In this document: one piece after another, positions 1,673 through 17,123 of the stretch
Layout of the letters: the number at the start of each line of letters is the position of its first letter
How positions within the stretch are numbered: position 1 is the first letter of the stretch
Source of the DNA: Candidatus Eiseniibacteriota bacterium
Lineage (GTDB): Bacteria; Eisenbacteria; RBG-16-71-46
Direction: 5' to 3'
DNA length: 17,123 nucleotides
Assembly (NCBI GenBank): GCA_044222065.1
Contig: JBGAOA010000081.1
Coordinates: 1-17,123, forward strand
Made by a program: the position numbers and the translations under genes
The notes under the pieces: model-generated
Seen by the model: the letters and a program-made list of their open reading frames with translations, nothing else
Told to the model about the DNA's origin: nothing
Database searches by the model: none

Positions 1673-2491
1673 ATGGCAGGCGGACTCGAACTCCTTCCGA
1701 CCCCCGCGGGGCTCGCGGTGGCCGCGACGTGCGTCGCGGCCGGCATTCCGTGCGCGCTCGAAGGCTGGCGCGTGTGGCGGCTGTCGCGCGCGCTCGGCGG
1801 CATCCGGCGCGTCGCGGTCGCGGACGCGCACGAGGGCTTCGCCCATCTCGCGGGCAAGGTCGTGCTCGAGAGCCCGCTGTTCGCGCCGCTCTCGGGGGCC
1901 GCGTGCGCCGCGTACCGGCTCGAGTTCGTGGATCCGCACGGCGTGACCGTCGCGTCGCACTCCGAGTGCCGCCCGTTCGGCGTGCTCGACGGCGACGCCG
2001 TCGCCCACGTCGAACCCGGACGCGCGCAGCTCGACTTCGCGGTCACGACGACGCGCGAGGCGCTCGAGCGCGAGGCGCTGAGCGAGAACGTCGAGGCGAT
2101 CCTCGCGCGCTCGCCCGAGGCGCAGTGGCTGCGGCGGAACGGTTCGGTGCGGCTCGTCGAGACGTCGCTCGTGGCCGGCGGCTTCTGCCACGTCGTGGGG
2201 CGCGTGCGGCACCGCGAGGAAGCGGTGCGGGTCGAGCAGGAGTGGCTGCGCACCGGCACCGACGACGTTGCCATCGGCGGCGAGACGACGCTGAGCGGCG
2301 CGGAGGTGTGGGTGGACGAGGGCGGCGCCGACGGCTTCCTGCTCGTGTCGGACCGCAGTCCCGAGGAGCGCGCGCTGCGGCTGCCACGCTGGCGCGCGCT
2401 CGGCCTCGTCGCCGGTCCCGCGCTCACGATCGCCGGGCTCGTGTACCTCGCGCACCTCGCCGAGCAGCTGCGCGGCGCGCGCGGGTTCTAG
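1673..2491 (+). CDS. GIDE/BAM-domain-like membrane protein (N- and C-terminal TM helices)
   Basis: Hydrophobic ends; core LFAPLSGAACAAY..PFGVLDG..AHVEP..ETSLVAGGFCHVVG..LLVSDRSPEE aligns by eye with the next ORF and the GIDE pattern. The start has no clear RBS. Confidence 0.65.
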   Translation: MAGGLELLPTPAGLAVAATCVAAGIPCALEGWRVWRLSRALGGIRRVAVADAHEGFAHLAGKVVLESPLFAPLSGAACAAYRLEFVDPHGVTVASHSECRPFGVLDGDAVAHVEPGRAQLDFAVTTTREALEREALSENVEAILARSPEAQWLRRNGSVRLVETSLVAGGFCHVVGRVRHREEAVRVEQEWLRTGTDDVAIGGETTLSGAEVWVDEGGADGFLLVSDRSPEERALRLPRWRALGLVAGPALTIAGLVYLAHLAEQLRGARGF

Positions 2492-2500
2492 GGAGGAGCG

Positions 2501-3313
2501 ATGGACGACCTTCGGTGGCAGTTCATCGCGGGCTGTTGCGTGATCGGCGGGCCGATCGCGTTCTACCGCGGCTTCCGCGACCTGCACGTGCGGCGCCTGA
2601 TCGACAACACGCCGACGTCGAACATCGCCTCGATGGCGATCGGCATGGTCGAGGTGAACGGCTCGACGATCGGCCGCAGCCGCACCGTCGCGCCGTTCTC
2701 GGGCCGCGAGTGCGTGTACTGGCAGATCGAGGTCGCCACGCGCGGACGCCCTCGCGACGGCTGGCGGACCGTGCACAAGAACGCGTCGGGCAATCCGTTC
2801 TTCCTGCGCGACCCGAGCGGCGTGGCGATGGTCTATCCGCGCGGCGCCGAGTGCCGGCTGCAGCACGGCGTCGAGGAGGACTGCCTCGGCATCAGCCTGC
2901 CGCCCGTGTACGCGGACTACTTGAACGAGGTCGTCGGGGCGCAGTCGAAGCTGTGGCGGCTCGGGCACATGCGCTTCCGCGAGCGCCTGCTCGAGGAGGG
3001 GCAGCGGATCTACGTGATGGGCTACGCGGCCCCGAAGGCCAACGCGCTCACGATTTCCGAGCCCGAGGAGGACCTCGAGGCCACCGGAACGGAGAACTAT
3101 TCCGCGCGCCGCATCCGGCCGATACAAGACGAGGTCTCGGCGGTGATCCGCCAGGGACAGAACGAGAAGACGTTCATCATCAGCCAGGACTCGGAGAAGA
3201 CGGTGTCGCTGATGTACGGCCTCAAGGCGAGCGGGAAGCTCGTCGGCGGACCGATCGCGACGCTCGCGGGACTGGCGTACTGGCTCGATTTCCTGAGGCG
3301 GATGAGCCACTGA
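2501..3313 (+). CDS. GIDE/BAM-domain membrane protein
   Basis: GGAGGAG RBS; RLIDNTPTSNIAS..GMVEVNG..APFSGRECVYW..PFFLRDPSG..RFRERLLEEGQRIYVMG..FIISQDSEK; TM helix at each end. Confidence 0.85.
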   Translation: MDDLRWQFIAGCCVIGGPIAFYRGFRDLHVRRLIDNTPTSNIASMAIGMVEVNGSTIGRSRTVAPFSGRECVYWQIEVATRGRPRDGWRTVHKNASGNPFFLRDPSGVAMVYPRGAECRLQHGVEEDCLGISLPPVYADYLNEVVGAQSKLWRLGHMRFRERLLEEGQRIYVMGYAAPKANALTISEPEEDLEATGTENYSARRIRPIQDEVSAVIRQGQNEKTFIISQDSEKTVSLMYGLKASGKLVGGPIATLAGLAYWLDFLRRMSH

Positions 3314-3356
3314 CGGCGCATCCGCGATTTCCGGCCGCAACGCACGGGGGAACCCG

Positions 3357-3938
3357 ATGAATCATCCGGGAGAGATTCTGGTCACCGTCGCTCTGGGCTT
3401 CATGGTCGTGGGGCTCTTGGGCTACGCGATCTCGATCTACAACGGCCTCATCGCGCTGAGGAACAACATCGGCCGTGCGTGGGCGAACATCGACGTGCTC
3501 TTGAAGCAGCGGCACGACGAGCTGCCGAAGCTCGTGGCGACGTGCGAGGGCTACATGCAGCACGAGCGCGCCGTGTTCGACAAGCTGTCGGAGGCGCGGG
3601 CGGCGCTCGCCGGCGCGCGCGGCGTCGCGCAGCGGGCCGAGATCGAGAACCAGATCACGCGCGCGATCGGCCAGATCTTCGCCGTCGCCGAGCAGTACCC
3701 CGTGCTCAAGGCCGACCAGGCGTTCCTCGCGCTGCAGAGCCGCATCAGCCAGCTCGAGAACCAGATCGCGGACCGCCGCGAGTTCTACAACGACACCGTG
3801 ACGACCTTCAACACGCGCATCCAGCAGGTGCCGGACATCATCGTGGCGAACTGGCTGTCGTTCCAGCCGAGCGAACTGTTCAAGGTCGCCGAGTCCGACC
3901 GCGAGGACGTGAAGATCCAGTTCAAGATGGCGGGGTGA
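3357..3938 (+). CDS. lemA: LemA family protein
   Basis: N-terminal TM, then YNGLIALRNNIGRAWANIDVLLKQRHDELPKLV..AVAEQYPVLKAD..LENQIADRREFYNDTVTTFNTRIQQVP, the typical LemA signature. Confidence 0.95.
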   Translation: MNHPGEILVTVALGFMVVGLLGYAISIYNGLIALRNNIGRAWANIDVLLKQRHDELPKLVATCEGYMQHERAVFDKLSEARAALAGARGVAQRAEIENQITRAIGQIFAVAEQYPVLKADQAFLALQSRISQLENQIADRREFYNDTVTTFNTRIQQVPDIIVANWLSFQPSELFKVAESDREDVKIQFKMAG

Positions 3939-4012: not shown

Positions 4013-6895
4013 ATGAACGGAATCGAATCGAGACGGGCACCGTGTGAAGCGGTGCCCGTTGGTGCCTCCAGATCACTGGCGAAGAGCGGCGCGCGATGCC
4101 GCTGGCGGTCAGCAGCGCTCGTGCTGGCCTCGATCGTTTTCGTGAGTCCCATCTGCCTCGCGTCGAGCCGCTTCCTGGCCCCCGCGCACTACACTTATGC
4201 GGGATACGGAGATCCCTTCGTTCGCTCCGGCGGCTTCGCCCTGGGGGACTTTGACGAAGACGGAGTGGTGGACGCGGTCTCGCTATCGCTCGTCGGCGAC
4301 GGGGTGGCCGTCCTGCTCGGCCGCGGGGACGGGACCTTTTCGCTCGAGCACGGATTCGGAGTGGGTCGCCCGCGCTGCTTCGCCGTCGCCGACTTCGATC
4401 GGGACGGCCATGAGGACGTGGCAGCGTTGGACGATCGAAGCTGCCGCGTCTACTTCGGAAGTGGGCCCTCACTTGATTGGCAGGAGGTCGCGATCGACCT
4501 TCCCTTGGCCGCCCAGCAGATGGCCGCGGCGGATTTCGATGGGGACGGGCAACCGGACCTCGCTCTCGCGAGTTGGTCAAATGAGCTCCGCGTGCTGATG
4601 AGCCGACCGAGTCGCGCCTTCTCCCAGATTGCCAGCCCAGAGGACAGCATCGATGGCACGCCGATCGACCTTCTCTCGGCCGATCTCAATCGAGACGGCC
4701 TCGCGGATCTCGTGCTGAGAAGCTCCCCGATTCAGGCTCTGTTACTCACCTCTCGCGGCGATGGGACGTTTCATCGGCGCACGATGGAGTCCCAACTCCT
4801 CGGCAATGACCTCGTCGTCACGGATGCGACTGGAGATGGGATTCCCGACCTCGTGACGGCCGGCTGGTTCTCGGTCGCGGTTCTTCCCGGGCTCGGTGAC
4901 GGGACCCTTGGGCAGCCGACGACGACGAGTTCGTACTTCTGGCTGCACGAAGAGCCGCAAGGGGTCGCCGTTGGAGACGTGACGGGCGACGGGATCGATG
5001 ACGTGCTGGTCACGCTTCAGTCCAGGGTCGCCACGTTCGCCGGGCTTGGGGGAGGCGTCTATGAAGCCCGGTCGGACGTCTGGGGTACACCGACACTGGG
5101 GGAACCGCTGTTGACGGATCTCAACGGTGACGAGCGACTCGACCTGATCTCCACTGAGCTGGAGAACTCGGGCATCAGCAGCATGCTTGGAGATGGGGCC
5201 GGCAGATTCGGCGAGCGAACATCTCCGGCCTGTTGGGCCGGACCGAACGCACTGCCCGTCGCGATTGCAGATGTCGATGAAGATGGACGACGCGATCTCA
5301 TCGCGTTGAACTTCTCGAACGATGGCCTGCAGTACTGGACGGGTGTAGCACTCTCCCGTGGGGTCCGAGGATTCGAATACGTGGGAAGTCCCGCATTCCC
5401 GCCTCATTTGAATCGCATGCAAGTCGAGGATTTCGATCAGGACGGACATCTCGACTTGATCGGTTGGGGGCAGGGCAGCTTCGGCTATTTGCCTGGCGAT
5501 GGCGCCGGGAGCTTCGGAGAGCATCGCACGCTCCCGTCGGCCCTCGACTCGCGAGTCGCCGATGTCAACGGGGATTCGCGTCCGGACATCGTGAGCGCCT
5601 CCGGGAATTCGATTCGGGTCAGGTTGAATCTCGGGTATGGCGAAGTCTCGAGCGAGATACTCACGGCCCTTCCCCCCGGGGTCCGCTTCCACCACTTCCT
5701 CGTCGGTGACCTGAATGGCGACTCACGGTCCGATCTGGCAGCAGCCGCTTACTCCACGGGTGAACCAGTCGCCTGGACTACGAGCCTGTTGGCCTATTCG
5801 ACGGGAGACGGGCACTTTGAATTGCAGGAGCGGATCTGGACAGGACAACCGAACGAGCCCGCGATCTTCGACGCGAATGAGGACGGGCGATTGGATTTCG
5901 GGGTCTTGGAGCGAATGCAGACCGCGGTTGGGTACTCGAGCGTAGAGGACCTTTGGCACATCCGAATTCAAGACTCCAACGGCAACCTGGGTCCGGAAGT
6001 TCTCGAAGAGTGGCCCGCTCGGTCGACCCCGGGCGGCAGCCGAATGTCGCTTGGTCCTGGTGAGGTGCCGACCTGGTTCCTCCATCGCTCGGCGTTCGGT
6101 GTGAGGCGAGGGGACGAGTCGGGTCGAACGATCGAGTGGGATGAGTATTCCGGGCTCGATCCCTATCCGCCTGATCCGGTGTTCGGGGACCTCGACGGAG
6201 ACGGACGCTCGGAATTCACCATCCGCCGTTTGGAGGGCGGGCCCCAAGGCGACAGCTTGCGCATCTTCTGGGGCCGCGACCCCGAGCCTCCGACCGGCAT
6301 CGTGTACGAGCCGCCGGGCGGGCTCGTGATGGCGGCTGGGCACGTGAAGACCCTGCGCTGGAAGGCGCAGGACAACCGCGGGCTCACGACGACGGACCTG
6401 TTCTTGTCCCGGCACGGCCGCCGCGGACCGTACGAGCGCATCGCCCTCGAGCTGCAGGACGCGACGTCGTACGACTGGAATGTGACGGGGCCGCTGTCGG
6501 ATAGCGTCGCGATCAAGCTCGTGATGCACGACGTGGATCGGAACGTCGGACTCGCGATCACGAGCGAGATGGGGCGGATCGTCGAGACGCTCGATGCGAG
6601 CGACGAGGGTTCGCGCCCGCGCGCGCTCGCGATCCGCGGCGTGACGCCGAACCCGGCGCGCGAGTCCGTGTCGTTCGACCTCGACGTGCCGGCGGAGTCG
6701 GCGGTGACGCTCGACCTGATGGACCTGCAAGGGCGGCGCGTGGCGCGGCTGTGGAGTGCGGAGCGGGAGCCCGCGGAAACGCGGCGGCTGACGTTCACGC
6801 GCTCACAGCTTCGTGGCGCGAGCGCGGGGATCTACTTCGTGCGGGCGCAGGCCGGCGGCGCGACGGCCGTCCGGCGCGTGGCGCTGCTCGACTGA
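4013..6895 (+). CDS. Secreted FG-GAP/VCBS repeat protein with an Ig-like domain and a C-terminal FlgD/T9SS type A-like domain
   Basis: Signal-like RWRSAALVLASIVFVSPICLA; more than ten D-[FLV]-[DN]-x-D-G-x-x-D-type repeats (e.g. GDFDEDGVVD, ADFDGDGQPD, ADLNRDGLAD); Ig-like EPPGG..TLRWKAQD..SYDWNV; C-terminal GVTPNP..LDLMDLQGRRVARL..AGIYFVRAQAG..RRVALLD. Confidence 0.88.
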   Translation: MNGIESRRAPCEAVPVGASRSLAKSGARCRWRSAALVLASIVFVSPICLASSRFLAPAHYTYAGYGDPFVRSGGFALGDFDEDGVVDAVSLSLVGDGVAVLLGRGDGTFSLEHGFGVGRPRCFAVADFDRDGHEDVAALDDRSCRVYFGSGPSLDWQEVAIDLPLAAQQMAAADFDGDGQPDLALASWSNELRVLMSRPSRAFSQIASPEDSIDGTPIDLLSADLNRDGLADLVLRSSPIQALLLTSRGDGTFHRRTMESQLLGNDLVVTDATGDGIPDLVTAGWFSVAVLPGLGDGTLGQPTTTSSYFWLHEEPQGVAVGDVTGDGIDDVLVTLQSRVATFAGLGGGVYEARSDVWGTPTLGEPLLTDLNGDERLDLISTELENSGISSMLGDGAGRFGERTSPACWAGPNALPVAIADVDEDGRRDLIALNFSNDGLQYWTGVALSRGVRGFEYVGSPAFPPHLNRMQVEDFDQDGHLDLIGWGQGSFGYLPGDGAGSFGEHRTLPSALDSRVADVNGDSRPDIVSASGNSIRVRLNLGYGEVSSEILTALPPGVRFHHFLVGDLNGDSRSDLAAAAYSTGEPVAWTTSLLAYSTGDGHFELQERIWTGQPNEPAIFDANEDGRLDFGVLERMQTAVGYSSVEDLWHIRIQDSNGNLGPEVLEEWPARSTPGGSRMSLGPGEVPTWFLHRSAFGVRRGDESGRTIEWDEYSGLDPYPPDPVFGDLDGDGRSEFTIRRLEGGPQGDSLRIFWGRDPEPPTGIVYEPPGGLVMAAGHVKTLRWKAQDNRGLTTTDLFLSRHGRRGPYERIALELQDATSYDWNVTGPLSDSVAIKLVMHDVDRNVGLAITSEMGRIVETLDASDEGSRPRALAIRGVTPNPARESVSFDLDVPAESAVTLDLMDLQGRRVARLWSAEREPAETRRLTFTRSQLRGASAGIYFVRAQAGGATAVRRVALLD

Positions 6896-7121: not shown

Positions 7122-7424
7122 ATGTCTGAATTCATTGGCTACGACGCCATGGACCTCGCCCGTCTCTGCTCGCGCTGGAGAGTGCGGGAGCTGTCGTTCT
7201 TCGGCTCGCTGGCCGATGGCACGTTCGGCGAGTCGAGTGACGTGGACGTCCTCGTGACGTTCGACGCGAGCGCCGGCTGGAGCCTGGCGGACCTCGTCGA
7301 GATGCGAGAGGAACTGGTCGCGTTGTTTCGGCGCGAGGTCGATCTCGTCGAGGAAGCGGCGCTCCAGAATCCTTTCCGCCGTGCGGCGATCTTGAAATCG
7401 AAGCGAGTGGTTCATGCGGCCTGA
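7122..7424 (+). CDS. mntA: Minimal nucleotidyltransferase (MNT) antitoxin
   Basis: ATG at 7122 after GGAG (in frame with track ORF 6813..7424); 100 aa; FGSLADGTFGESSDVDVLV fits GS-x10-DxD; also REVDLVEE..LQNP. Confidence 0.9.
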   Translation: MSEFIGYDAMDLARLCSRWRVRELSFFGSLADGTFGESSDVDVLVTFDASAGWSLADLVEMREELVALFRREVDLVEEAALQNPFRRAAILKSKRVVHAA

Positions 7425-7779
7425 AGAACGGGACGCAGCTCACCTCTGGGACATGCTTCGCGCGGCCCGCGAAGCGCACCGCTTCGCTTCCGAGGTATCG
7501 GCACATTCGTTCGCAACCGACCGCATGCGACAGCTCGCCGTCGAGCGCGCGGTCGAGATCATCGGTGAGGCCGCGAATCGCGTCTCGGAAGCGTGTCGCT
7601 CGAGGCATCCGGAAATCCCGTGGCGCTCGATCATCGCTCAGCGAAACGTCCTCGCGCACGAGTACGGAGAGATCAGGCAGGAACGCATGCACGCGCTCGC
7701 GACAACGAGGCTTGTGGAACTCATCGCGCAGCTCGAGCGGGTCGTGCCGCCCGCTCCAGAGGCGCCTCCCGCGGGATAG
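7414..7779 (+). CDS. hepT: HEPN (DUF86/HepT-like) RNase toxin
   Basis: LAVERAVEIIGEAANRVS..HPEIPWRSIIAQRNVLAHEY contains the R-x4-H-x-Y motif; overlaps the MNT gene by 11 nt. Confidence 0.92.
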   Translation: MRPEERDAAHLWDMLRAAREAHRFASEVSAHSFATDRMRQLAVERAVEIIGEAANRVSEACRSRHPEIPWRSIIAQRNVLAHEYGEIRQERMHALATTRLVELIAQLERVVPPAPEAPPAG

Positions 7780-7875: not shown

Positions 7876-8229
7876 CTACTTCGCCTGCGGCATCGCGTGG
7901 CCCTCGTCGAGCCAGCGCTTGAGATCTGTCATGTCCTTCGCGTTCTCGGCGAACTGCGCGCCGCGCTTCGTCAGCTTCGTCGAACCGGGCTTGCGCACGT
8001 GGCACGCGGTGCAGCGGCCGAACGACGAGCGGATCTGGTCGTAGCCGTCGAGCGTCTTGCGCGCCTCGAAGTACTTGCCGCGGTCCGTGAGCAGCTTGCT
8101 GCCCGGCTTGTCGTGACACGCGACGCACTGCTGCCCCGTGTCCTTCGCGAGCTTCTCGGACGCCGCGGCGAAGCTCGCGAGCGCGAGCGACGCGGCGACG
8201 GCGAGGACGACGATTCCCAGCGTCTTCAT
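7876..8229 (-). CDS. Small periplasmic dihaem c-type cytochrome
   Basis: ATG at 8229 after GAGAGG; Sec-type signal MKTLGIVVLAVAASLALASFAAA; two CxxCH motifs (CVACH, CTACH); 117 aa. Confidence 0.88.
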   Translation of the reverse strand: MKTLGIVVLAVAASLALASFAAASEKLAKDTGQQCVACHDKPGSKLLTDRGKYFEARKTLDGYDQIRSSFGRCTACHVRKPGSTKLTKRGAQFAENAKDMTDLKRWLDEGHAMPQAK

Positions 8230-8251
8230 CGAACGTTCCTCTCTCACCGGG

Positions 8252-9586
8252 TCACTTCCCGGAGAAGGCCTTGCTGAAGCCCACGGAGACGGTCCACTGC
8301 GAGTGGTCCACCGACGCACCGGGGCCGAACGGGTTCACGTTCTGGTTCGTGTTGTTGTTCGTCTGCGACGCCTCGAAGCCGCGCTCGAGCGCGAGGTTCA
8401 GCGTGTTCGCGCCCCACGTGTAGCCGAAGCCGAGCGCCGCGTGCTGTTCGACCGTGGCGGGGAACAGCGGGTTGAGCGTCTCGTCGGGCACCGGGCTCGC
8501 GCCGAAGTTGTAGCCGCCGCGCAACGTCAGCGCGTCGGTCGCGCGGTACTCGACGCCGCCGATCCACGTCCACTCGTCCTTCCACTCGAACGTGAATGGC
8601 ATCGTGACCGTGGACATCATCGCGGGCAGCGGCTGGTCGGGATTCGTGCCCTTCACCTTGATGAGGCTCACCGCGTCGCTCCACAGGTAGCGGCGCGCGT
8701 CCACCGCGACGCGCCAGCGCTCCGCGGGCTTGAGCTGCACGCCGAGTCCGACCTGGTCGGGCCACGTGAAGCCCTCGACGGTCGCGTCGTAGTGCACGAC
8801 GCCGGCGCCGATCGAGTTCATGTTCAGCGACAGCGTGCCGTTCTCGTAGTCGCCCTGCGTCTTCGTCTGGTAGATCGCGCCGAGCTGCAGCTCGGGCAGC
8901 GCGCTCCACATCAGGCCGACGCGGCCGCTGTAGTTGAGCGCGCTCGCGCGCTTGTTCAGGTTCGCGCCGAAGAACGCCATGTCGTCGGTCGGATCGAGCG
9001 GCGTGCCCATGTCGTTGTAGTAGCTGGTATTCGGATAGAAGCGGAACTTGAGGTCCGAGTAGCCGACGTTCGCCGACACGCCGATCGAGAAGTCCTCGAC
9101 GGGCGTGAACGCGACGGTGGGCGTGGCGGTGAGGAAGCGCACTTCGCTGTACGTGCCGTCCTTCGTGCCGAACGGCGTGCTGTAGCCCTCGAACTGCGCG
9201 CCCATGCCGCCCTGGCTCAGGAGGCCGAAGCCCCACGTCCACGGCGAGCGCGCGCCGCCGCGCACGTACGAGATCGACGGCATCGCGAAGATCGCGTCCT
9301 TCGCGTCGAGCGAATTGCCGAACGGATCGCCGCCGTAGTGGAGGCTCGGCGCGAGCAGCTGGAGGTCGGCGCTCAGGTGGCCGCCCTGGAGCTGCGCGAT
9401 GCCGGCCGGGTTCGCCTGCAGTCCGAGCGCGCGGTCGGCGACCGCGATGTTCGCGCCCGCGCGGCCGGCGGCTTCGCTGCCGTACGCCGCGAGGTACATG
9501 CCGTTCGTGGCGAGCGCGGGGCCCGCGGCGAGCGCGACGAGCGCGATCGCGGCGAGGGCGCGCGCGGGAATCGGGATTCGGGTCAT
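8252..9586 (-). CDS. OmpP1/FadL/TodX family outer-membrane channel
   Basis: ATG at 9586 after GAGGAGG; signal peptide, then ATNGMYLAAYGSEAAGRAGANIA..ANPAGI (hatch-domain NPA motif); amphipathic beta strands, EWKDEW, LTLRGGYNFG; 444 aa. Confidence 0.92.
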   Translation of the reverse strand: MTRIPIPARALAAIALVALAAGPALATNGMYLAAYGSEAAGRAGANIAVADRALGLQANPAGIAQLQGGHLSADLQLLAPSLHYGGDPFGNSLDAKDAIFAMPSISYVRGGARSPWTWGFGLLSQGGMGAQFEGYSTPFGTKDGTYSEVRFLTATPTVAFTPVEDFSIGVSANVGYSDLKFRFYPNTSYYNDMGTPLDPTDDMAFFGANLNKRASALNYSGRVGLMWSALPELQLGAIYQTKTQGDYENGTLSLNMNSIGAGVVHYDATVEGFTWPDQVGLGVQLKPAERWRVAVDARRYLWSDAVSLIKVKGTNPDQPLPAMMSTVTMPFTFEWKDEWTWIGGVEYRATDALTLRGGYNFGASPVPDETLNPLFPATVEQHAALGFGYTWGANTLNLALERGFEASQTNNNTNQNVNPFGPGASVDHSQWTVSVGFSKAFSGK

Positions 9587-9915
9587 GGGTGAGTCCTCCT
9601 CACGGCCCGACCGGGGGCGATCGCGCCGTCCTTCGGCGGCGCGACGAAACCCGCGATGCGGGCGATCGAGACCTCGGCGTCTCCGGGAAACAACGTGGCG
9701 AGTTCGTCGCGGCCGAGATCGGTGAGCCGTTGCAGCGTCGCGAGGCCGGGCGCGCATCCCGTGCGCGCGGCTTCCTCGCGGTATCGAGCGATGACGTTCC
9801 AGTGCCGGTGCGTGAGTCGCGGGATGCCGAGCGCGCGCGCGGCGAGCGCGGCGCGGTCGGGCGTCCATTCGGAGGCGGCCGGCCGGAGGCCGCGCGGAGT
9901 CCGCGTGCGCGTCAC
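9583..9915 (-). CDS. DsrC/TusE-family fold protein lacking the C-terminal cysteines
   Basis: EWTPDRAALAA..GIPRLTHRHWNVIARYR..G.AP..LATLFPG..ARIAG matches the DsrC/TusE consensus. GTG start after GAGG; stop overlaps the fadL-like ATG (ATGA). Confidence 0.8.
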   Translation of the reverse strand: MTRTRTPRGLRPAASEWTPDRAALAARALGIPRLTHRHWNVIARYREEAARTGCAPGLATLQRLTDLGRDELATLFPGDAEVSIARIAGFVAPPKDGAIAPGRAVRRTHP

Positions 9916-9922
9916 GGCCGCC

Positions 9923-10609
9923 TCAGCAGCCTTCCTTCTGCTTCTTGCGCGCCGCGGGAGTGCCGACGGGACGCGGCGGCGCCTTCGGCGCGATCGTCGA
10001 GCCGCCCGCGTCGGTGGCGCCCGCGACCGGCAGCGCGAACGCAGCGCCGGCGGCGGCGGACGACGCCGCGCGCGGCGCGCCGCCGAACGAGCGCGCGACC
10101 TCGGCCGCGCGCGCGAACGCCGCGAGCGACTCGCGCGACGAGTCCGACGGCGCCGCCGGATAGAGCACGTCGTCCTTCCAGCCCTCGAGCCCGTCGTAGA
10201 GGATCTTCGCGCCGGCGAAGCGCTCGGCCTCGAGCAGGAACCACGCTTGCGCGGCGTGCACGCCGCCGTCCGAGTAGAGGACGATCGTCTCGTTGCGCTG
10301 AAGCCCCGCGTCCATGAGCCGCGCGACCGGGACGTTCTCGGCCGTCGGAATGTGGTACGCGGCGTACGCGCTGTCCGAGCGCAGGTCCACGAGCCGGTAG
10401 TCCGAGCGGGCCTGCAGGATCCAGTCGGCGAGTTCGCGGGCGGTGACGTGGTCCACCGCGCCGCCGACGATCGTCGCGAGTCGCCGCGAATCGAGCCGCA
10501 CCGCGTGACCGGTGTAGGGATCGCCCGCGAGCGCCAGCACGCCGAGCCCGAGCGCCGCCGCGGCGAGCGCGCGGTTGCGCGTCCAGAGGAAGCGGGGCGT
10601 CGCGTTCAC
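9923..10609 (-). CDS. Membrane-anchored or exported rhodanese-fold protein with a C-terminal EGC tail
   Basis: N-terminal hydrophobic helix; VTARELADWI..LVDLRS..YHIPTAENVP..IVLYSDGG..LYDGLEGW; Ala/Pro-rich linker ending KKQKEGC; GTGA overlap with the upstream gene and GGAGG RBS. Confidence 0.88.
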   Translation of the reverse strand: MNATPRFLWTRNRALAAAALGLGVLALAGDPYTGHAVRLDSRRLATIVGGAVDHVTARELADWILQARSDYRLVDLRSDSAYAAYHIPTAENVPVARLMDAGLQRNETIVLYSDGGVHAAQAWFLLEAERFAGAKILYDGLEGWKDDVLYPAAPSDSSRESLAAFARAAEVARSFGGAPRAASSAAAGAAFALPVAGATDAGGSTIAPKAPPRPVGTPAARKKQKEGC

Positions 10610-11214
10610 GGCCGCGCCTCCGCGCCTTCGCGTCTACCGAAGCGGCGCTCGACCCACTCGGCGCCCGCGAAGCCGCCGAGCGCCATGAGCACGACGAGCA
10701 GCACGACGAGCCCGTACGGGAGGTGGAACGCCTTCGGCAGCGTGAGCGTGCCCATGGCGCCGCTCTCGTAGAACGGCTTCACGAACGGGAACGACTCGCC
10801 GAACGCGAACACGCCCGCGAACACGCCGGCGACGAACACCATCGCGTCCACGCGGCCCGTCGCCATCGCGACCATCGAGGTGCCGGGGCAGTAGCCGCCG
10901 ATCACGAAGCCGAGCCCGAGCACGAGGCCGCCCGCGATCTGCGGCCACAGGAACGTCGGCGTGAGCGAGACGAGCGACAGGTCCACGACACCGGCCCACG
11001 ACAGGTAGAACACGCCGAGCATCGCGGTGACGATCGCCGTGAACATGACCTTGAACACCGCGAGATCGTTCAGATAGAACTGCGAGACGAGCTTCTTCGC
11101 GCTGCCGAAGCCCGCGCGCTCGAGGAAGAACCCGAACGCGATGCCGATCGCGAACGCCACGACGAGCGACGTCTCGCCGCCGAACGCGCCGAACTTGTAG
11201 AAGGGAGCGTTCAT
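10606..11214 (-). CDS. YeeE/YedE (sulfur transport) family membrane protein, second half-type
   Basis: ATG at 11214 (ATGA overlap, GAGGAGG RBS); GIAFGFFLERAGFG..KVMFTAI..GGLVLGLGFVIGGYCPGTS; 202 aa. Confidence 0.9.
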   Translation of the reverse strand: MNAPFYKFGAFGGETSLVVAFAIGIAFGFFLERAGFGSAKKLVSQFYLNDLAVFKVMFTAIVTAMLGVFYLSWAGVVDLSLVSLTPTFLWPQIAGGLVLGLGFVIGGYCPGTSMVAMATGRVDAMVFVAGVFAGVFAFGESFPFVKPFYESGAMGTLTLPKAFHLPYGLVVLLVVLMALGGFAGAEWVERRFGRREGAEARP

Positions 11215-11798
11215 CGCCACTGCCTCCTCACGACGGCGGCGAACGCGTAGGCGCCCGCGAACACCATCATCATGAAGGCCCAGCTGCCGGCGTTGAGCAG
11301 CGCGCCGCCGGTGAGCGCCTGGCCGCTCGTGCAGCCGCGCGCGAGCTTCGCGCCGACCCCCATGAGCGCGCCGCCGAGGAACGCGAGCGCGAGCCGTCCG
11401 GCGTTCGAGATGCGCGGGCCCTTCTCGATCGTGCGCTGCACGCGGCCGGCGAGCAGGCCCGACAGGAACCCGCCGACGATCACGCCGAGCACTTCGAACA
11501 CGAGCCACGCCTTGAGCGGATGTCCGAGGCCGCCCTCGGCGTACTCCTTCCAGAACGCGTTCGCCTGCACGTGTTCGGGGCTCGCGAGCCCGAGGAGCCA
11601 CGAGATCGTGGACGACACGGCGCCCGAGGCGCCGAGCCCGCGGCCCATGACGACGAACGCGGTCAGCAGCACGAGGCCGAGTCCGAGTCCGGCGAGGTAC
11701 GGATTGCTGTACGCCGCGGCGCGGGCGGGCGCCCGGTCGTGCGCGTGGTCGCGCGCGTCGGACCCGCTCGCGGCGTGGACGTTCGAAACGACGGTCAT
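11211..11798 (-). CDS. YeeE/YedE (sulfur transport) family membrane protein, first half-type
   Basis: GGAGGGAG RBS; NPYLAGLGLG..GLGASG..FLGGALMGVGAKLARGCTSGQALTG. Confidence 0.9.
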   Translation of the reverse strand: MTVVSNVHAASGSDARDHAHDRAPARAAAYSNPYLAGLGLGLVLLTAFVVMGRGLGASGAVSSTISWLLGLASPEHVQANAFWKEYAEGGLGHPLKAWLVFEVLGVIVGGFLSGLLAGRVQRTIEKGPRISNAGRLALAFLGGALMGVGAKLARGCTSGQALTGGALLNAGSWAFMMMVFAGAYAFAAVVRRQWR

Positions 11799-11814
11799 CG
11801 CAACTCCCTCCGCG

Positions 11815-12765
11815 TCACACCCGGCCCCAGTGGCTCGCCTGACCGGCGTAGACGATCACGATGCGCAGCAGCAGCCCGCCCGCGAGCACGAGCACGGGCG
11901 CCACCGGCGTGTGGCGCACGCGGTGACCGACCGCGAGCGTCTGGACGAACAGCGGTACGGCGATTCCGATCCCGACGACGCCGACCCAGAACACGCTCGT
12001 GTAGGGGCCGCCGAGCACGAGCCCGGCCGCTTCGGCGTGCACGCGCGTCGAGGTGACGAGGCCGATCAGGAACAGCGCGAGCAGCGCGAGTTCGGCTTGC
12101 AGGAAGCGGTTGTCGGCGCGCGCGAGGAACTCGCTCTCGGCGCGCTCCTTCGCGACCATGTGGACGAGCGCCGCCGCGCTCGAGAGGCCCGAGGCGAGGA
12201 ACAGCGGCCCGAGCAGCGCGCTGTTCCAGAGCGGCCGCGCGCCGAGCGTGCTGAGCAGGATGCCGGTGTAGATCCCGAGCGCGCCGCCGAGCACCATGTT
12301 CGTCGCGGCCACGGCGCGCACGAGCCGCGCGTCGCGGTTCCACGCCTCGGACCACGCGGCGAGCGCTGGCGCGCGGTCGCCGAGCCACGCGGGCAGCCGC
12401 AGCACGAGGTTCGCGAGCAGCGCGGGGTAGACGGCGACGAGGATCCACGCGCCCCACGACATCGGCGAGGCCGGCTGGAACGCGACGTAGAGCCGCCACA
12501 CGTAGAGCTTGTGCTCGAGGTCGAGGAACAGCGCGAGCATGCCGAGCGACAGCAGCACGATGCCGAGCCCCGGAAGCAGGTAGGCGACCGAGTCCGCGCG
12601 GCGGTGGCGGTCCGAGAACAGAAACCAGCCCGAGATCGCCATCATGCCGGCGACGAGTCCGCCGAGGAACAGGTACGCGGGGATCTGCCACGCCCACACG
12701 TGCAGCGTCGGGTCCACGAGGTGGTTCGCGCGCGTCGAGACGAGGTCGGTCATGGCGTCGCTCAC
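11815..12765 (-). CDS. psrC: Polysulfide reductase membrane subunit, NrfD/PsrC family
   Basis: GTG at 12765 overlaps the psrB stop (alternative ATG at 12753); WAWQIPAYLFLGGLVAG, LFLDLEH, SPMSWGAWIL, IYTGILLS..RPLWNS..PLFLASGLSS, GGLLLR; about eight TM segments. Confidence 0.92.
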   Translation of the reverse strand: MSDAMTDLVSTRANHLVDPTLHVWAWQIPAYLFLGGLVAGMMAISGWFLFSDRHRRADSVAYLLPGLGIVLLSLGMLALFLDLEHKLYVWRLYVAFQPASPMSWGAWILVAVYPALLANLVLRLPAWLGDRAPALAAWSEAWNRDARLVRAVAATNMVLGGALGIYTGILLSTLGARPLWNSALLGPLFLASGLSSAAALVHMVAKERAESEFLARADNRFLQAELALLALFLIGLVTSTRVHAEAAGLVLGGPYTSVFWVGVVGIGIAVPLFVQTLAVGHRVRHTPVAPVLVLAGGLLLRIVIVYAGQASHWGRV

Positions 12766-13301
12766 GTGAGGAAGTGGATGCGCGGGCCGGTGCCGGCCTC
12801 GCTCAGCAGCGCGTGAGAACGGCGCGACGCGAGCAGCCGGCTCACCTCGCTGTTCGGATCGTCGAGGTCGCCGAAGTGCATGCAGCGCGTCGGGCACACC
12901 GCGACGCACGCCGGCTCGAGGCCCTGCTTCACGCGGTGAAGGCAGAACGTGCACTTGTCCGCGTAGCCCTGCGGGTGGATGAAGCGCGCGTCGTACGGGC
13001 ACGAGGCGAGGCACGCCTTGCAGCCGATGCACAGCTCCTTCGCGACCTGCACCGTGGCGCCAAAGTCCTCGACGTGGCTCGCGCCGGTCGGGCAGCACGC
13101 GACGCACGGGGGACGGTCGCAGTGGTTGCAGCGCTCGCTGCGGATCTCGAGCCGCAGGTCCGGGAACTTGCCGCTCGTCTCCTGCACGATCCAGTCGCGG
13201 CAGTGGCCTTCGGGAACGCCGTTCTCGGTCTTGCAGGCCACGACGCAGTCCATGCAGCCGACGCAGCGCGCCGTGTCGATCACCATGCCGAAGCGGGCCA
13301 C
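12762..13301 (-). CDS. psrB: Four-cluster [4Fe-4S] electron-transfer subunit (PsrB/NrfC/DmsB type)
   Basis: CVGCMDCVVAC, CNHCDRPPCVACCP, CIGCKACLASCP, KCTFC..ACVAVCP; GTG start after GGAGG. Confidence 0.95.
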   Translation of the reverse strand: MARFGMVIDTARCVGCMDCVVACKTENGVPEGHCRDWIVQETSGKFPDLRLEIRSERCNHCDRPPCVACCPTGASHVEDFGATVQVAKELCIGCKACLASCPYDARFIHPQGYADKCTFCLHRVKQGLEPACVAVCPTRCMHFGDLDDPNSEVSRLLASRRSHALLSEAGTGPRIHFLT

Positions 13302-13302
13302 G

Positions 13303-15495
13303 TCAGACCTCCGGCTCGAGCGTGACGAAGTTGACGTTCATCGCGGTGCCGCCCATGAGCGGGTCCACGACGTAGCGCGTGACGAGCCCGGCGTCGCTCG
13401 CTCCGCGCTTCGAGCGCGGCGCGAGTCCGCGCGCCGAATGTCCGAAGCCGTGCACCAGGTAGACGCAGTCGCCGCGGATGCGCTCGGTCGCGCGCACCGC
13501 GACCGGCGCGCTCAGCGCGCCGTCCTGGTTGCGCAATCGCACGCGCGCGCCGTCGTCGAGGCCGAGCCGGCGCGCGACGTCGGCGTTCAGCCACACGACG
13601 TTCTCGGGCATCATCTCGAGCAGCAGCGGGTTCGTCTGCGTACGCCCGAACGAGTGCACGGGCGCGCGGCCGAACAGCAGGCGAAACGAGCCCGGGGGCG
13701 GCGCTTCGTGCGCGCGGAAGCGCGGCACCGGGTCGAATCCCGCGTCCGAGAGGCGCGTGGACCAGAACTCGATCTTGCGGCTCGGCGTCGCGAACTCGGC
13801 CGGCACGCCCTCTTCGAAGTACACCGGGCCGCGCGCGCCACGCACGATACCGGTGGTCTTCAGCTCGTCGAAGCTCAGCCCCGCGTTGCGAAGGCGCGTC
13901 TCGAGGTACTCCTCGATCGTCTTCCACGGGAAGTACGCGCCGAGCCCGGTGCGGTGCGCGAGTTCGCGCGCGATCCACCAGTTCGGCTTCTGGTCGTGCG
14001 GCGGCGGCACGACGGGCTGGCGCAGAGCCACGAACGGGTCGCGGAACAGCTCGACGTTCAGGTCGTCGTAGCGCTCGAGGTAAACGCTCTCGGGCAGTAC
14101 GACGTCGGCCCAGCCGGCGATCTCGCTCGGGACCACGTCCACGACGACGACGAGGTCGAGGTTCTGCAGCGCGCGGATCGTCTCGGCCTCGTTCGGCAGC
14201 GCCTGCAGGAGGTTCGTCGCGTACACGAACCAGCCCTTGATCGAGTACGGCTGGCCCGTGATCGTGGCTTCGCGCAGGCCGGTCGTCAGCACTTCGTCGG
14301 CGAATGGATGACGGTCGCCGGGATTGTCGGCGCGGCCGCGGTGAGGCTTCGCGTACGGCGGGTACGGGTAGGGTGGAACGCTCATGCGCTGCGGCACGAA
14401 GAAGCCGCCCTTGCGGCCCCAGCTGCCGAGCAGCGCGTTCAGCAGCGCGACCGCGCGGCTGCGCTGCGCGTCGTCGCCGTACCACGTCACGTGGCGGCCG
14501 GGGTGGACGAGGCTCGCGGGCCGGTGGCGCGCCATCTCGCGCGCGGTCTCGCGGATCAGCTCCGGCGCGAGCGACGTGCGCGGATAGGCCCACTCGGGCG
14601 TGTACGCCGCGATCTCGGCCGCGAACTCGGCGAAGCCGTAGCCGTGCGACTCGACGTACTCGCGATCGTACAGGCCCTCGGTGACGAGCACGTTCATCCA
14701 CGCGAGCAGCAGCGCGAGGTCGGTGCCGGGCGTGATCGGCAGGTAGTACTTCGCCTTGCTCGCGGCGGTCGAGAAGCGCGGATCGACGACGATCACGGTC
14801 GCGCCGCTGCCGACCGCGTCCGCGAACTCCTGCACCTGCGAGTTGTGCATGTTCTCGCCGAGGTGCGAGCCGATCAACGTCAGGCAGCGCGCGTTCGCGA
14901 TGTCCGTGCGCTCGGGCGAGCCGATGTCCTCGCCGAACGTGAGCTGGAAGCCGATGTCGCGCGGCCCGCGGCACTGCGCATAGGACGGCGCGCTGAGGTT
15001 CGGCGTGCCCCACGCCTTGAAGAAGTGCTTGAGGAAGTTGCCGCCGATGCCGTGGCTGAAGAGCGCCATGGACTCGGGGCCGTAGCGATCGCGGATCGCC
15101 TGCATCTTCGTCGCGATCGTGTCGAGCGCCTCGTCCCACGACACCGCGACCCACTCCTCGGCGCCGCGCTCGCCCTTGCGGACGAGCGGAGTCTTGAGCC
15201 GCTGCGAATCGAAGTGCGCGCCGACGCCGCCCGTGCCGCGCGGGCACAGCCGGCCGCGCGAGAGCGGATCGCGCGGATTGCCCTCGATCTTCCACAGCCG
15301 CTCGCCGCGGACGCTCGCGATCGCGCCGCACTTCCAGAAGCACACGTCGCAGAACGTCGGCACCGTCCGCACCGGCGCGTTCGGATCGTCCTGCGCCGCG
15401 AGTTCGTGCGCGGCGCGCGCGCCCGAGCCCGCGAGCGCGAGGCCCGTCGCGGCGGCCGAGATCTGGAGGAATCGTCTGCGTGAGAGTTCGGGCAT
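13303..15495 (-). CDS. psrA: Tat-exported Mo/W-bis-PGD oxidoreductase catalytic subunit, polysulfide/thiosulfate reductase (PsrA/PhsA) clade
   Basis: ATG at 15495 after GGAG; Tat motif LSRRRFLQ; FS0 motif CDVCFWKC..RLCPRG; FSHG; likely Mo-ligand Cys in PSYAQCRGPR; PGTDLALLLA, WADVVLPESVYLER, VHSFGRT, VHGFG; 730 aa. Exact substrate cannot be determined from sequence. Confidence 0.9.
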   Translation of the reverse strand: MPELSRRRFLQISAAATGLALAGSGARAAHELAAQDDPNAPVRTVPTFCDVCFWKCGAIASVRGERLWKIEGNPRDPLSRGRLCPRGTGGVGAHFDSQRLKTPLVRKGERGAEEWVAVSWDEALDTIATKMQAIRDRYGPESMALFSHGIGGNFLKHFFKAWGTPNLSAPSYAQCRGPRDIGFQLTFGEDIGSPERTDIANARCLTLIGSHLGENMHNSQVQEFADAVGSGATVIVVDPRFSTAASKAKYYLPITPGTDLALLLAWMNVLVTEGLYDREYVESHGYGFAEFAAEIAAYTPEWAYPRTSLAPELIRETAREMARHRPASLVHPGRHVTWYGDDAQRSRAVALLNALLGSWGRKGGFFVPQRMSVPPYPYPPYAKPHRGRADNPGDRHPFADEVLTTGLREATITGQPYSIKGWFVYATNLLQALPNEAETIRALQNLDLVVVVDVVPSEIAGWADVVLPESVYLERYDDLNVELFRDPFVALRQPVVPPPHDQKPNWWIARELAHRTGLGAYFPWKTIEEYLETRLRNAGLSFDELKTTGIVRGARGPVYFEEGVPAEFATPSRKIEFWSTRLSDAGFDPVPRFRAHEAPPPGSFRLLFGRAPVHSFGRTQTNPLLLEMMPENVVWLNADVARRLGLDDGARVRLRNQDGALSAPVAVRATERIRGDCVYLVHGFGHSARGLAPRSKRGASDAGLVTRYVVDPLMGGTAMNVNFVTLEPEV

Positions 15496-15539: not shown

Positions 15540-15555
15540 AGCAGCGCCGATGCCA
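15540..15555 (-). promoter_or_regulatory. Sigma-54 (RpoN) -24/-12 promoter of the psr operon
   Basis: Minus strand reads TGGCATCGGCGCTGCT: exact GG-N10-GC spacing, close to consensus TGGCAC-N5-TTGCW; about 45 nt upstream of the psrA ATG. Confidence 0.85.
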
Positions 15556-15611
15556 CGGGCTAACCCGTTGTCGTTCAAAGGTCGCGTTGACGCGCGCAGG
15601 CGGCCGAACAC

Positions 15612-15647
15612 GAAACGTCGCGACGCAACGTCGCGACGTGACGTTTC
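15612..15647. promoter_or_regulatory. Candidate upstream activator sequence (tandem palindromes)
   Basis: AACGTCGCGACG at 15614-15625 and 15627-15638, within the inverted repeat GAAACGTC...GACGTTTC; about 60-95 bp upstream of the -24 element. Confidence 0.65.
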
Positions 15648-15677
15648 AGTGGAGTGGCCGAGCGGAGGAGCTTGGCG

Positions 15678-17077
15678 TCAGCTCGCGAGGCCGAACTCGC
15701 GCATCTTCCGCCACAGCGTCGAGCGGCTGATGCCGAGCGAGCGCGCGGCGTCCACGCGATTCCAGCGGTGGCGCTCGAGCGCCGCGAGCAGCGCGTCGCG
15801 CTCGCCCGCGGCCGGCGCGGTGGGCGCGTGGGCCGACGCGGGGGCGGGCGCCGCGATCGCCGGCGCGCTCGCGCGCGCGGCGGCGGCCTCGAGGATCTCG
15901 GCCGGCAAGTCGCGTTCGTGGATCGTCTGTCCGTGGCACACGGCGACCCGTACTCGAGCGTGTTCTCGAGCTCGCGGACGTTGCCGGGCCACGCGTGCTC
16001 GAGCAGCGCGCGCAGCGCGTCGGGCGCGACGAGCAGCGCGCGGCCCTGGCGCGCCGAGACGCGCGAGCGGTGGCGCGCGAGCGGCTCGATGTCCTCGCGC
16101 CGCTCGCGCAGCGGCGGGATCGCGATCGGGAGCACGCGCAGGCGGTAGTAGAGGTCGCCGCGGAAGCGTCCGTCCATGACGTCGCGCTTCAGGTCGCGGT
16201 TCGTCGCGGCGACGATGCGCACGTCGGAACCGCGCGACTCGCTCTCGCCGACGCGCTCGAACGTGCGCTCCTGCAGCACGCGCAGCAGCTTCACCTGAAG
16301 CGCCAGCGGCAGGTCGCCGACCTCGTCGAGGAACAGCGTGCCGTGGTCGGCGAGTTCGAAGCGCCCGACGCGGTCGCGCACGGCGCCGGTGAACGCGCCG
16401 CGCACGTGGCCGAACAGCTCGGACTCGAGCAGTTCGCCCGGGAGCGCGCCGCAGTTGACCGCGACGAACGGTCCTTCGCGCCGCGGCGAGTGCGCGTGCA
16501 GCGCGCGCGCGACCAGCTCCTTGCCCGTGCCGCTCTCGCCCGTGAGCAGCACGGTCGAGTCGCTCTCGGCGAGGTCGAGGATCAGCCGGAAGATGCGCAG
16601 CATCGAAGGCGAGCGCCCGACGAGCCCGGCGAAGATCGTCGGCAGCGCGGTCTCGGGCACGCTCGCGTCCTCGGCCGAGCGGATCACGATCATGTAAGCG
16701 ACGCGCGGATCGCAGAGCGGCGACTCGATGCCCTTCACGGGCGCCGCCGAGAGCGACAGGAGCCGCGGCGCGCGGCCTTCGATCTCGAGCGTGGCGCCCC
16801 AGCCCTCGCGCCGCTCGCCCGCCGCGAGCGCTTCGCGCAGCGCGCCGCCCTCGCCGAACAGCTCGGCGCCGAGCGCGCGCTCGGCGGGCAGGCCGACGTG
16901 GGCGTTCGCGGCGCCGTCGCCGGCGATCGCATCCAACTCCTCGGACGCGTGGACGATCGTGAACGACGGATCGAGGCACACGAGCGCGCGGCCGAGGCAG
17001 CCGAACAGCCCGCTCACCGTGTGGACGAAGTGGCGGCTCAGCTCGGGATCGGGCGGACCGTGCGTCCCGTCGCTCAC
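15678..17077 (-). CDS. Sigma-54-dependent enhancer-binding protein (PAS-like, AAA+, Fis-type HTH), frameshifted near 15948
   Basis: GTG at 17077 after [50 protein letters not shown] in one frame; [27 protein letters not shown] in a second frame ending at 15678. No receiver domain is evident. Confidence 0.9.
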
Positions 17078-17084
17078 GCGCGCC

Positions 17085-17123
17085 TCAGCTCGGCGTCGCC
17101 GCCGCGGGGGCGGGCACCGCACG
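17085..17123 (-). other. Possible 3' end of an upstream co-directional gene
   Basis: One frame reads ..RAVPAPAAATPS-TGA with the stop overlapping the GAGG RBS of the regulator; too short to identify. Confidence 0.3.

Follow-up and report, generated by a model that had tools for sequence, protein, structure and literature searches.

Nine genes lie in series on the minus strand of contig JBGAOA010000081.1 of a Candidatus Eiseniibacteriota bacterium (assembly GCA_044222065.1); the whole contig, 17,123 nucleotides (nt) long, is the window analysed here. In reading order they encode the three subunits of a Psr-type molybdoenzyme (psrA, psrB and psrC), two YeeE/YedE-family channel halves, a rhodanese-fold protein with a cysteine-tipped tail (hereafter the arm protein), a DsrC-like protein, a FadL-family outer-membrane barrel and a dihaem cytochrome c (Table 1). 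The open reading frame list and profile searches placed all nine where an original prediction, made from the sequence alone, had put them, and matched its family labels. From psrA to the cytochrome the successive gaps are 1, 8, 16, -4, -4, 7, -4 and 22 nt, that is, overlaps of 4 nt or gaps of 1-22 nt, as first described. The same prediction took the nine genes for one complete system of sulfur uptake, relay and reduction. Comparison with other genomes indicates instead that the locus is two-layered, with a six-gene core running from psrA to the arm gene, followed by a three-gene lineage add-on.

Table 1. Features of the psr operon and its flanks in the window (aa, amino acids).
Feature	Position	Strand	Basis
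psrA, Tat-signal molybdopterin catalytic subunit, 730 aa	13303-15495	-	PF00384/PF04879/PF01568
psrB, four-[4Fe-4S] subunit, 179 aa	12762-13301	-	Fer4_11; 16 cluster-type cysteines conserved
psrC, NrfD-type membrane anchor, 312 aa, 8 hydrophobic segments	11815-12753	-	PF03916 E 2.6e-45; hydropathy
YeeE half 1 (PmpA/YedE-like), single Cys156	11211-11798	-	PF04143
YeeE half 2 (PmpB/YedE-like), single Cys109, 5 hydrophobic segments	10606-11214	-	PF04143
Arm protein: membrane-anchored pseudo-rhodanese, Pro/Ala tether ending KKQKEGC	9923-10609	-	PF00581; Foldseek rhodanese-domain matches
DsrC-fold protein without DsrC/TusE carrier cysteines	9583-9915	-	PF04358
FadL/TodX-family outer-membrane barrel	8252-9586	-	PF03349 E 3.3e-34, full length, 118.5 bits vs 29.7
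Exported dihaem cytochrome c, 117 aa	7876-8229	-	two CXXCH
Sigma-54 (-24/-12) motif TGGCATCGGCGCTGCT	15540-15555	-	sequence
Palindromic element, upstream of the promoter motif	15611-15649	-	hairpin 15615-15639
Sigma-54 enhancer-binding protein (PAS-like, AAA+, HTH), directly upstream	15681-17122	-	PF00158
13-bp hairpin between operon and convergent toxin-antitoxin genes	7801-7832		fold

An alignment search with the arm protein reached 224 GTDB genomes, and the best 80 loci were kept; gene-presence fractions count only loci long enough to hold the gene in question. The order psrA-psrB-psrC-yeeE-yeeE-rhodanese is kept across many phyla, with core loci in Eisenbacteria, Bacteroidota, Ignavibacteria, Acidobacteriota, Gammaproteobacteria, Gemmatimonadota, Myxococcales, KSB1 and Calditrichaeota, and its members were found in 77/77 (YeeE2), 76/76 (YeeE1), 65/66 (psrC), 57/58 (psrB) and 50/51 loci (psrA, the miss being L085). 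Close orthologues of the last three genes followed the core in 2 of 75 (DsrC-like), 3 of 66 (FadL) and 2 of 64 loci (dihaem cytochrome), and these genes were seen mainly in Ca. Eisenbacteria; all nine genes stand in order in one locus (L048) and eight in another (L152). The co-occurrence that had been anticipated was thus borne out for the core, which is syntenic across phyla, and for FadL barrels, which recur beside it; it failed for the add-on trio, which is lineage-limited, so that the nine genes are not one complete conserved system. Neighbours of the 83 sequences clustered included MobA-like genes in 29 loci, CMD-family genes in 14 and MerR genes in 13.

PsrA carries a predicted twin-arginine translocation (Tat) signal with an SRRRFLQ motif (PF10518 E 9e-4, under the curated cut-off, 19.5 vs 22.7). 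Its best match among solved structures is Thermus PsrA (PDB 2VPW_A; E 3.5e-221 over 723 residues, the next at 6.9e-59), in agreement with the identity first assigned, and, aligned to 2VPW_A, its Fe-S cysteines 49, 52, 56 and 84, Cys175 and Arg334 are invariant in 55-58 homologues. Cys175 is presumably the Mo ligand and Arg334 the funnel residue. PsrA scores far lower against ArrA (140 bits), TtrA and others than against PhsA (473 bits); the PhsA equivalog NF012032 is not reached (472.6 vs a cut-off of 694). No PDB chain, not even Thermus PsrC, matched PsrC by sequence. An 8-helix NrfD-type anchor marks Psr, and a dihaem PhsC marks Phs (PMC12949373). By that criterion the predicted anchor, NrfD/PsrC-type with 8 segments, would mark the enzyme as Psr and not Phs. 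In a FastTree tree of 42 PsrA rows, for which 28 were chosen from 54 close loci, with PhsA as the sole characterised reference and the Thermus, Wolinella and Srr enzymes outside the sampling, the window PsrA and the 28 close loci form one clade (support 1.0), distant YeeE-linked proteins come next, and Salmonella PhsA lies outside. The chaperone family PF02613 (TorD/SrrD-type) was not found in the host genome (94% complete) or among the nine genes; the host encodes several molybdoenzymes despite this.

The three proteins that follow the enzyme each hold one invariant Cys. Cys156 of YeeE half 1 is kept in 80/80 loci and aligns with C293 of StYeeE, and Cys109 of half 2 is kept in 83/83 and aligns with C91; the position of StYeeE C22 is Gly in half 2. 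In StYeeE, C293 is the periplasm-facing entry and C91 the centre of the channel (PMC7449682). The pair is not of the full-length YeeE/TsuA/SoxT type, having two genes and two cysteines vs one chain of 330-350 aa with three. The related YedE1E2 pair imports zero-valent sulfur and requires both of its cysteines (PMC10812762).

The arm protein's only Cys is its last residue (Cys228). Among 120 close homologues the active-loop position is Ser in 118 and the C-terminal Cys is present in 119, and distant representatives showed an active-loop Cys in 1/135 and a Cys among the last four residues in 115/135. All 77 complete arm ends among the loci read EGC; 6 others ran off the contig. The label rhodanese therefore stands as a fold and falls as a carrier, the carrier Cys of the family being missing. 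The proposal that the Cys-tailed protein and the YeeE pair belong to a sulfur relay fared better: with one invariant Cys in each, the three proteins would fit such a relay. Selenocysteine read-through past the terminal GC was considered and rejected, since the stop codons after EGC are mixed (TGA 47, TAG 18, TAA 12) and no read-through is conserved. The host genome has a selenocysteine tRNA (tRNA-Sec).

In the predicted structure of the arm protein, a helix (residues 11-28) precedes a confident rhodanese domain (41-175) and a low-confidence tail, read here as flexible; the tail after FGGxP is 36-54 aa long in 51/57 proteins, with many Ala, Pro and Gly residues. In 56 of 57 arm proteins the net charge before the N-terminal helix exceeds that after it, which predicts a periplasmic arm domain. 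Fusions between YeeE2 and the rhodanese (six full and seven partial among 150 listed representatives, with four further at L136-L139), together with in-frame YeeE-rhodanese fusions in 14/73 metagenome loci, imply that the membrane anchor is not cleaved. Prediction of a YeeE1-YeeE2-rhodanese complex scored 0.45 vs 0.13 for the best control, with at least 87% of contacts in agreement between runs and a partner predicted local distance difference test (pLDDT) score of at least 70; this supports an assembly weakly. Of 157 solved complexes, 18 passed at 0.60 or below, and so did the only 2 of 215 mismatches to pass at all. We infer that the arm is periplasmic and packed on the channel through its N-terminal helix. 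In many genomes the arm protein forms one chain with a YeeE half, and it accompanies the YeeE pair where Psr is replaced; a channel subunit is therefore the better reading, and not the carrier for PsrA that the original prediction made of it. On a plasmid of Chondrinema litorale (L124:13746-14782) the core has two rhodanese-like genes; the product of one ends in KKKKKVQGGCS, and that of the other has no Cys.

The loci in which Psr is replaced are of two kinds. In psr-less loci on a Gemmatirosa plasmid and in metagenomes, a tandem rhodanese lies upstream in 20/20 with enough DNA (most with signal-peptide-like starts, judged by eye), and a desulfurase-like class-V aminotransferase, which is under all desulfurase cut-offs, lies downstream of the module in 38/39. 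psrA was found in 0 of 80 of the metagenome loci, many of them short, and a Cys stands within the last three residues in 77/77 complete arm ends. The order in these operons (L155-L234, e.g., L159, L161 and L203, and L125:5856-9838) is a secreted-type tandem rhodanese, YeeE1, YeeE2 (often fused to an RRRGC-tailed pseudo-rhodanese) and the class-V aminotransferase. In L153:4930-14010, an octahaem tetrathionate-reductase-family cytochrome (TIGR04315) with a cytochrome b anchor replaces Psr beside the module. These neighbourhoods provide evidence that channel and arm may be a module common to three unrelated enzymes; since it also stands beside two unrelated sulfur enzymes, it is likely a plug-in relay that would move sulfur between periplasmic enzymes and the cell interior.

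Further genes of these types were seen elsewhere. L153 also holds an Rrf2 regulator, a multihaem/cytochrome b fusion, YeeE1 and a fused YeeE2-rhodanese with the C-terminus GGCG, with FadL, dihaem cytochrome and methionine gamma-lyase-like genes on its divergent side. Upstream of psrA in the psr-type locus L108 there is a class-V aminotransferase with 50% identity to that of Gemmatirosa. The host genome encodes a signal-peptide tandem rhodanese, 43% identical to that of the psr-less operon, near a contig end (C73:4614-5396, minus strand), and this protein is a possible sulfur donor in trans.

Among the three add-on proteins, the DsrC-like protein had been listed as a part of the sulfur system, and its label holds for the fold alone: against TIGR03342 it scores 21 vs a cut-off of 53.5, the alignment stopping before the Cys arm, and no Cys is invariant across 5 homologues. 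A persulfide carrier role was rejected because both carrier cysteines are missing; a search with the protein returned only a near-identical copy. This Cys-less fold is likely a scaffold or regulator, and an optional addition. The closest solved structures to the FadL barrel are CymD, TbuX and TodX, and S8 may enter through it. In homologues of the dihaem cytochrome both CXXCH motifs and H111 are kept in 99/99 and M100 in 97/99, making Met100 and His111 candidate distal haem ligands; the protein is likely a periplasmic electron shunt, again optional. An Atlas search with it returned only small c7/c3-like clusters (0.91-0.93, fewer than 170 shared features), which is a lead only.

The cytochrome gene occurs in 10 of 206 genomes of the phylum, the host included, with FadL directly upstream in all 8 others examined (of 9). 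In L140, the three add-on genes follow a distinct psr type in a locus without psrC and arm gene; their presence on this second type too indicates that they travel as a unit with sulfur loci. In L140-L143, which carry that type, PsrB is extended by a hydrophobic C-terminal stretch and none of the loci yielded a psrC; L140 and L141 also have Rieske, cytochrome b and multihaem genes upstream. Some FadL gene was present in 14 of the 80 loci (1.18 Mb) vs 6 matches in five whole genomes, a comparison in which the background is of Eisenbacteria genomes only and related loci are not independent. The FadL genes beside the core sort into three starred clades plus an open group, and this origin in several separate clades suggests repeated recruitment.

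We propose that a Cys relay, from the arm through the two YeeE halves, couples a quinol-driven polysulfide/thiosulfate reductase to sulfane-sulfur uptake, a model to which we give about an even chance. Polysulfide or thiosulfate-derived sulfur, arriving partly through the FadL barrel, would load the periplasmic arm Cys as a persulfide. PsrA would then reduce the arm sulfur to sulfide with quinol electrons delivered by PsrC and PsrB, a reaction that may serve as a low-yield electron sink and not as growth-supporting respiration; alternatively, the arm would pass its sulfur to Cys156 and then Cys109 for import. Caldithrix abyssi, for which a homologous cluster is reported (PMC9324843), reduces S0 and thiosulfate to sulfide while fermenting (PMC5317091). 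More tentatively, and with somewhat less confidence than in the coupling itself, we suggest that the YeeE pair and Cys-arm together make up a three-subunit relay of general use that carries persulfide sulfur across the membrane. It would be a membrane-tethered equivalent of SoxY into which unrelated periplasmic enzymes plug, and arm-bound sulfur would be the substrate of this Psr clade.

Several observations weigh against the model. PsrA, PhsA and SrrA are inseparable by phylogeny of the catalytic subunit (PMC12949373), so the substrate is not settled by sequence. A reading as sulfur respiration sits poorly with two cultured organisms that have similar clusters: C. abyssi shows no growth by S0 or thiosulfate respiration (PMC5317091), and Melioribacter roseus is not stimulated by either (PMC3534657). 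The authors of the former study attribute the sulfide to cytoplasmic enzymes and consider Psr maybe inactive, TorD being lacking (PMC5317091), and PF02613 likewise gave no match in our host genome, 94% complete; in M. roseus, psrA was induced on arsenate (adjusted p 0.03; PMC5492636). In the gammaproteobacterial genome G153 the core adjoins an sHdr-like oxidation cluster. L140 combines psrA, the YeeE pair and the add-on genes and has no arm protein, so the arm is not obligatory. The psr-less loci were found through a fusion-type query, which biases the search to that subfamily, and many are short.

The sHdr-like neighbourhood belongs to an alternative that we consider unlikely, in which PsrA oxidises sulfide to feed the quinone pool, placing sulfur on the arm Cys, from which the channel takes it into the cytoplasm to be oxidised or assimilated. 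In G153 the core (L054:10638-20564, L126) is followed by an ArsR/BigR-like repressor and a lipoate-binding-type GcvH/LbpA-like gene, and the same stretch holds a hydrogenase with Isp-like subunits and HdrC/B/A-like, lipoylation-type, DsrE-like and FadL genes. Electron transfer from sulfide to menaquinone is downhill. In Chlorobaculum tepidum psrABC is up on sulfide (bioRxiv 10.1101/172254), and the YeeE-type SoxT imports sulfur that feeds sHdr (PMC11582611). LbpA-like genes occur in 6 loci and HdrA-like genes in 4, but all are closely related Proteobacteria and amount to about one event; the host genome has no match to sHdrC/B/A queries or PF01077, and C. abyssi makes sulfide and does not consume it (PMC5317091). 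Sulfur assimilation as the purpose of the cassette was examined separately and allows no inference: PF01507 had no match in the host genome or in any of 59 family genomes, with or without the cassette, and is present in two cassette-bearing genomes.

That the enzyme is instead a respiratory arsenate or selenite (or thio-oxyanion) reductase, the thiol relay handling or removing its product, appears quite unlikely. The arsenate-induced psrA of M. roseus is preceded by a MerR gene, as in the 13 loci noted above, and the selenite reductase operon srr carries rhodanese-domain genes too (PMC12481199), but induction is not catalysis, ttrA was induced as well (PMC5492636), and the M. roseus link itself rests on PMC6338057 and the Melioribacter sp. 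locus L100. The low ArrA score relative to PhsA, the failure to find a srrD/TorD gene, and the sulfur enzymes that are the module's other partners also argue against it. Still less probable is an outward route, in which sulfane sulfur of the cytoplasm, released for example when cysteine or methionine is broken down, is exported by the module to the arm and reduced outside by Psr as an electron sink. The class-V aminotransferase of the psr-less loci and the methionine gamma-lyase-like gene of L153, which follows FadL and the cytochrome, would suit such a route, as would peptide fermentation by C. abyssi (PMC5317091); against this, YedE1E2 promoted import, not export (PMC10812762), and outer-membrane barrels, recruited more than once, suggest that the substrate comes from outside. 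Finally, we consider it very improbable that the locus is one integral nine-gene system for respiratory growth on S8 or polysulfide with the rhodanese as a free, Sud-like PsrA carrier. Its tight junctions and single promoter, the nine- and eight-gene loci, and the add-on genes of L140 favour such a unit, yet the add-on genes are absent from most loci, the rhodanese is a membrane-anchored protein that has no catalytic Cys and tracks YeeE, and sulfur respiration did not support growth of the cultured organisms with similar clusters.

The sigma-54 motif first described for the operon, TGGCATCGGCGCTGCT, is real and is its putative promoter. The pattern TGGCA-N7-TGC recurs in 5/5 loci with an enhancer-binding-protein gene directly upstream (8/55 among all loci with 200 nt of upstream DNA); a sigma-70 promoter scan returned 0 sites. 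The palindromic element farther upstream is likely an activator-binding site or the terminator of the regulator gene, and similar GAAAC..GTTGCA..GTTTC elements were matched by pattern in L025 and L047 only and by eye also in L031 and L052. The enhancer-binding protein, 73% identical to the intact L047 protein, is split over two frames, the reading frame being broken near 15950 and 16060; at these places single low-depth contigs of one DNA run (X2) carry inserted bases, so the frameshifts are likely assembly errors. The hairpin described at the end of the operon is present, but its T-rich tail lies on the plus strand only, and it thus fits the convergent toxin-antitoxin genes better than the operon. 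In four RNA runs, contigs were short and shallow and, although some cross gene junctions, they also cover the adjacent toxin-antitoxin genes; they were rejected as evidence of co-transcription. Near-identical DNA is present in sludge, bioreactor and biofilm metagenomes.

The rest of the window encodes, on the plus strand, two GIDE-like membrane proteins followed by LemA (1673-3938), a 960-aa protein with FG-GAP repeats and a secretion-tail-like domain at its C-terminus, of lower GC content than its surroundings (4013-6895), and a nucleotidyltransferase with a HepT-like ribonuclease (7122-7779), likely an MNT-HEPN toxin-antitoxin module convergent on the operon. On the minus strand lie an extracytoplasmic function (ECF) sigma factor (987-1568) and a Ser/Thr kinase (2-1000).

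Uncultured bacteria of sludge, soil and sediment commonly carry this Psr clade, and annotation routinely assigns it to sulfur/thiosulfate respiration, which cultured hosts do not show. If arm-bound sulfur is its substrate, this would explain why those hosts do not respire free sulfur or thiosulfate, and if the nine-gene form adds outer-membrane entry, the path would span the whole envelope. The module bears on how sulfane sulfur crosses the inner membrane and is presented to Psr; its three single cysteines are direct mutational targets, and cultured carriers exist both with psr (Chondrinema litorale) and without it (Gemmatirosa kalamazoonensis).

Among known systems, the PsrABC enzymes of Thermus thermophilus (PDB 2VPW-2VPZ) and Wolinella succinogenes share the three-subunit layout and cofactor-free 8-helix anchor, and the presumed Mo-ligand Cys and funnel Arg of Thermus PsrA align with those of the window; the Thermus complex differs in its PsrC, which gave no sequence match, and in the channel and arm that are added here. 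In Wolinella the carrier is Sud, a soluble rhodanese whose active site contains a Cys. Sud and the catalytic rhodaneses have this Cys in the active loop, where the arm protein has Ser. The srrABCDEF operon of Bacillus selenitireducens has a Psr-like trimer and rhodanese-domain genes in common with the window, but the window has no SrrD chaperone, and no YeeE pair is listed for srr in the available part of its description (PMC12481199). As in YedE1E2/PmpAB, two adjacent halves carry one Cys each, at the C293 and C91 positions, without C22; the halves here are 195-202 aa vs about 130-140. TsuB/YeeD is cytoplasmic (PMC11582611), whereas the third subunit here is an anchored Cys-arm on the predicted periplasmic side. 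SoxYZ likewise carries sulfur between periplasmic enzymes on the Cys of a C-terminal swinging arm (PMC11237559), but the scaffold here is a rhodanese fold, membrane-anchored and tied to the channel, and SoxY was not among the listed fold or family matches of the arm protein. CT2230 of Chlorobaculum tepidum is, like our barrel, a FadL-family member; it belongs to a sulfur regulon and has been proposed as a passage for hydrophobic sulfur chains (bioRxiv 10.1101/172254), but it is not in a psr operon.

The combination had been thought uncharacterised, but its six-gene core is already in print. Clusters of phsABC, pmpAB and a sulfurtransferase are described in Ca. Electryonea clarkiae, Ca. Lernaella stagnicola and Caldithrix abyssi, with one Pmp-sulfurtransferase fusion and a proposed Pmp uptake of an unknown sulfur species (PMC9324843), and in Ca. 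Thermonerobacter thiotrophicus a pair of DUF395 transporters and a rhodanese accompany merR-psrABC, which is likened to the psrABC loci of M. roseus and I. album (PMC6338057). The six-gene order in both is the same as here, and both are known from genes, not bench work; the parts of these accounts available to us make no mention of the missing catalytic Cys, a tail tipped with Cys, partner enzymes of other kinds or the add-on trio. No account of a Cys-tail arm or of swapped partners was found in the literature searched, which excluded supplements and most subscription papers. The core gene set has thus been noted before and the nine-gene form is a lineage variant; what is added here is evidence for the channel and arm as a shared module.

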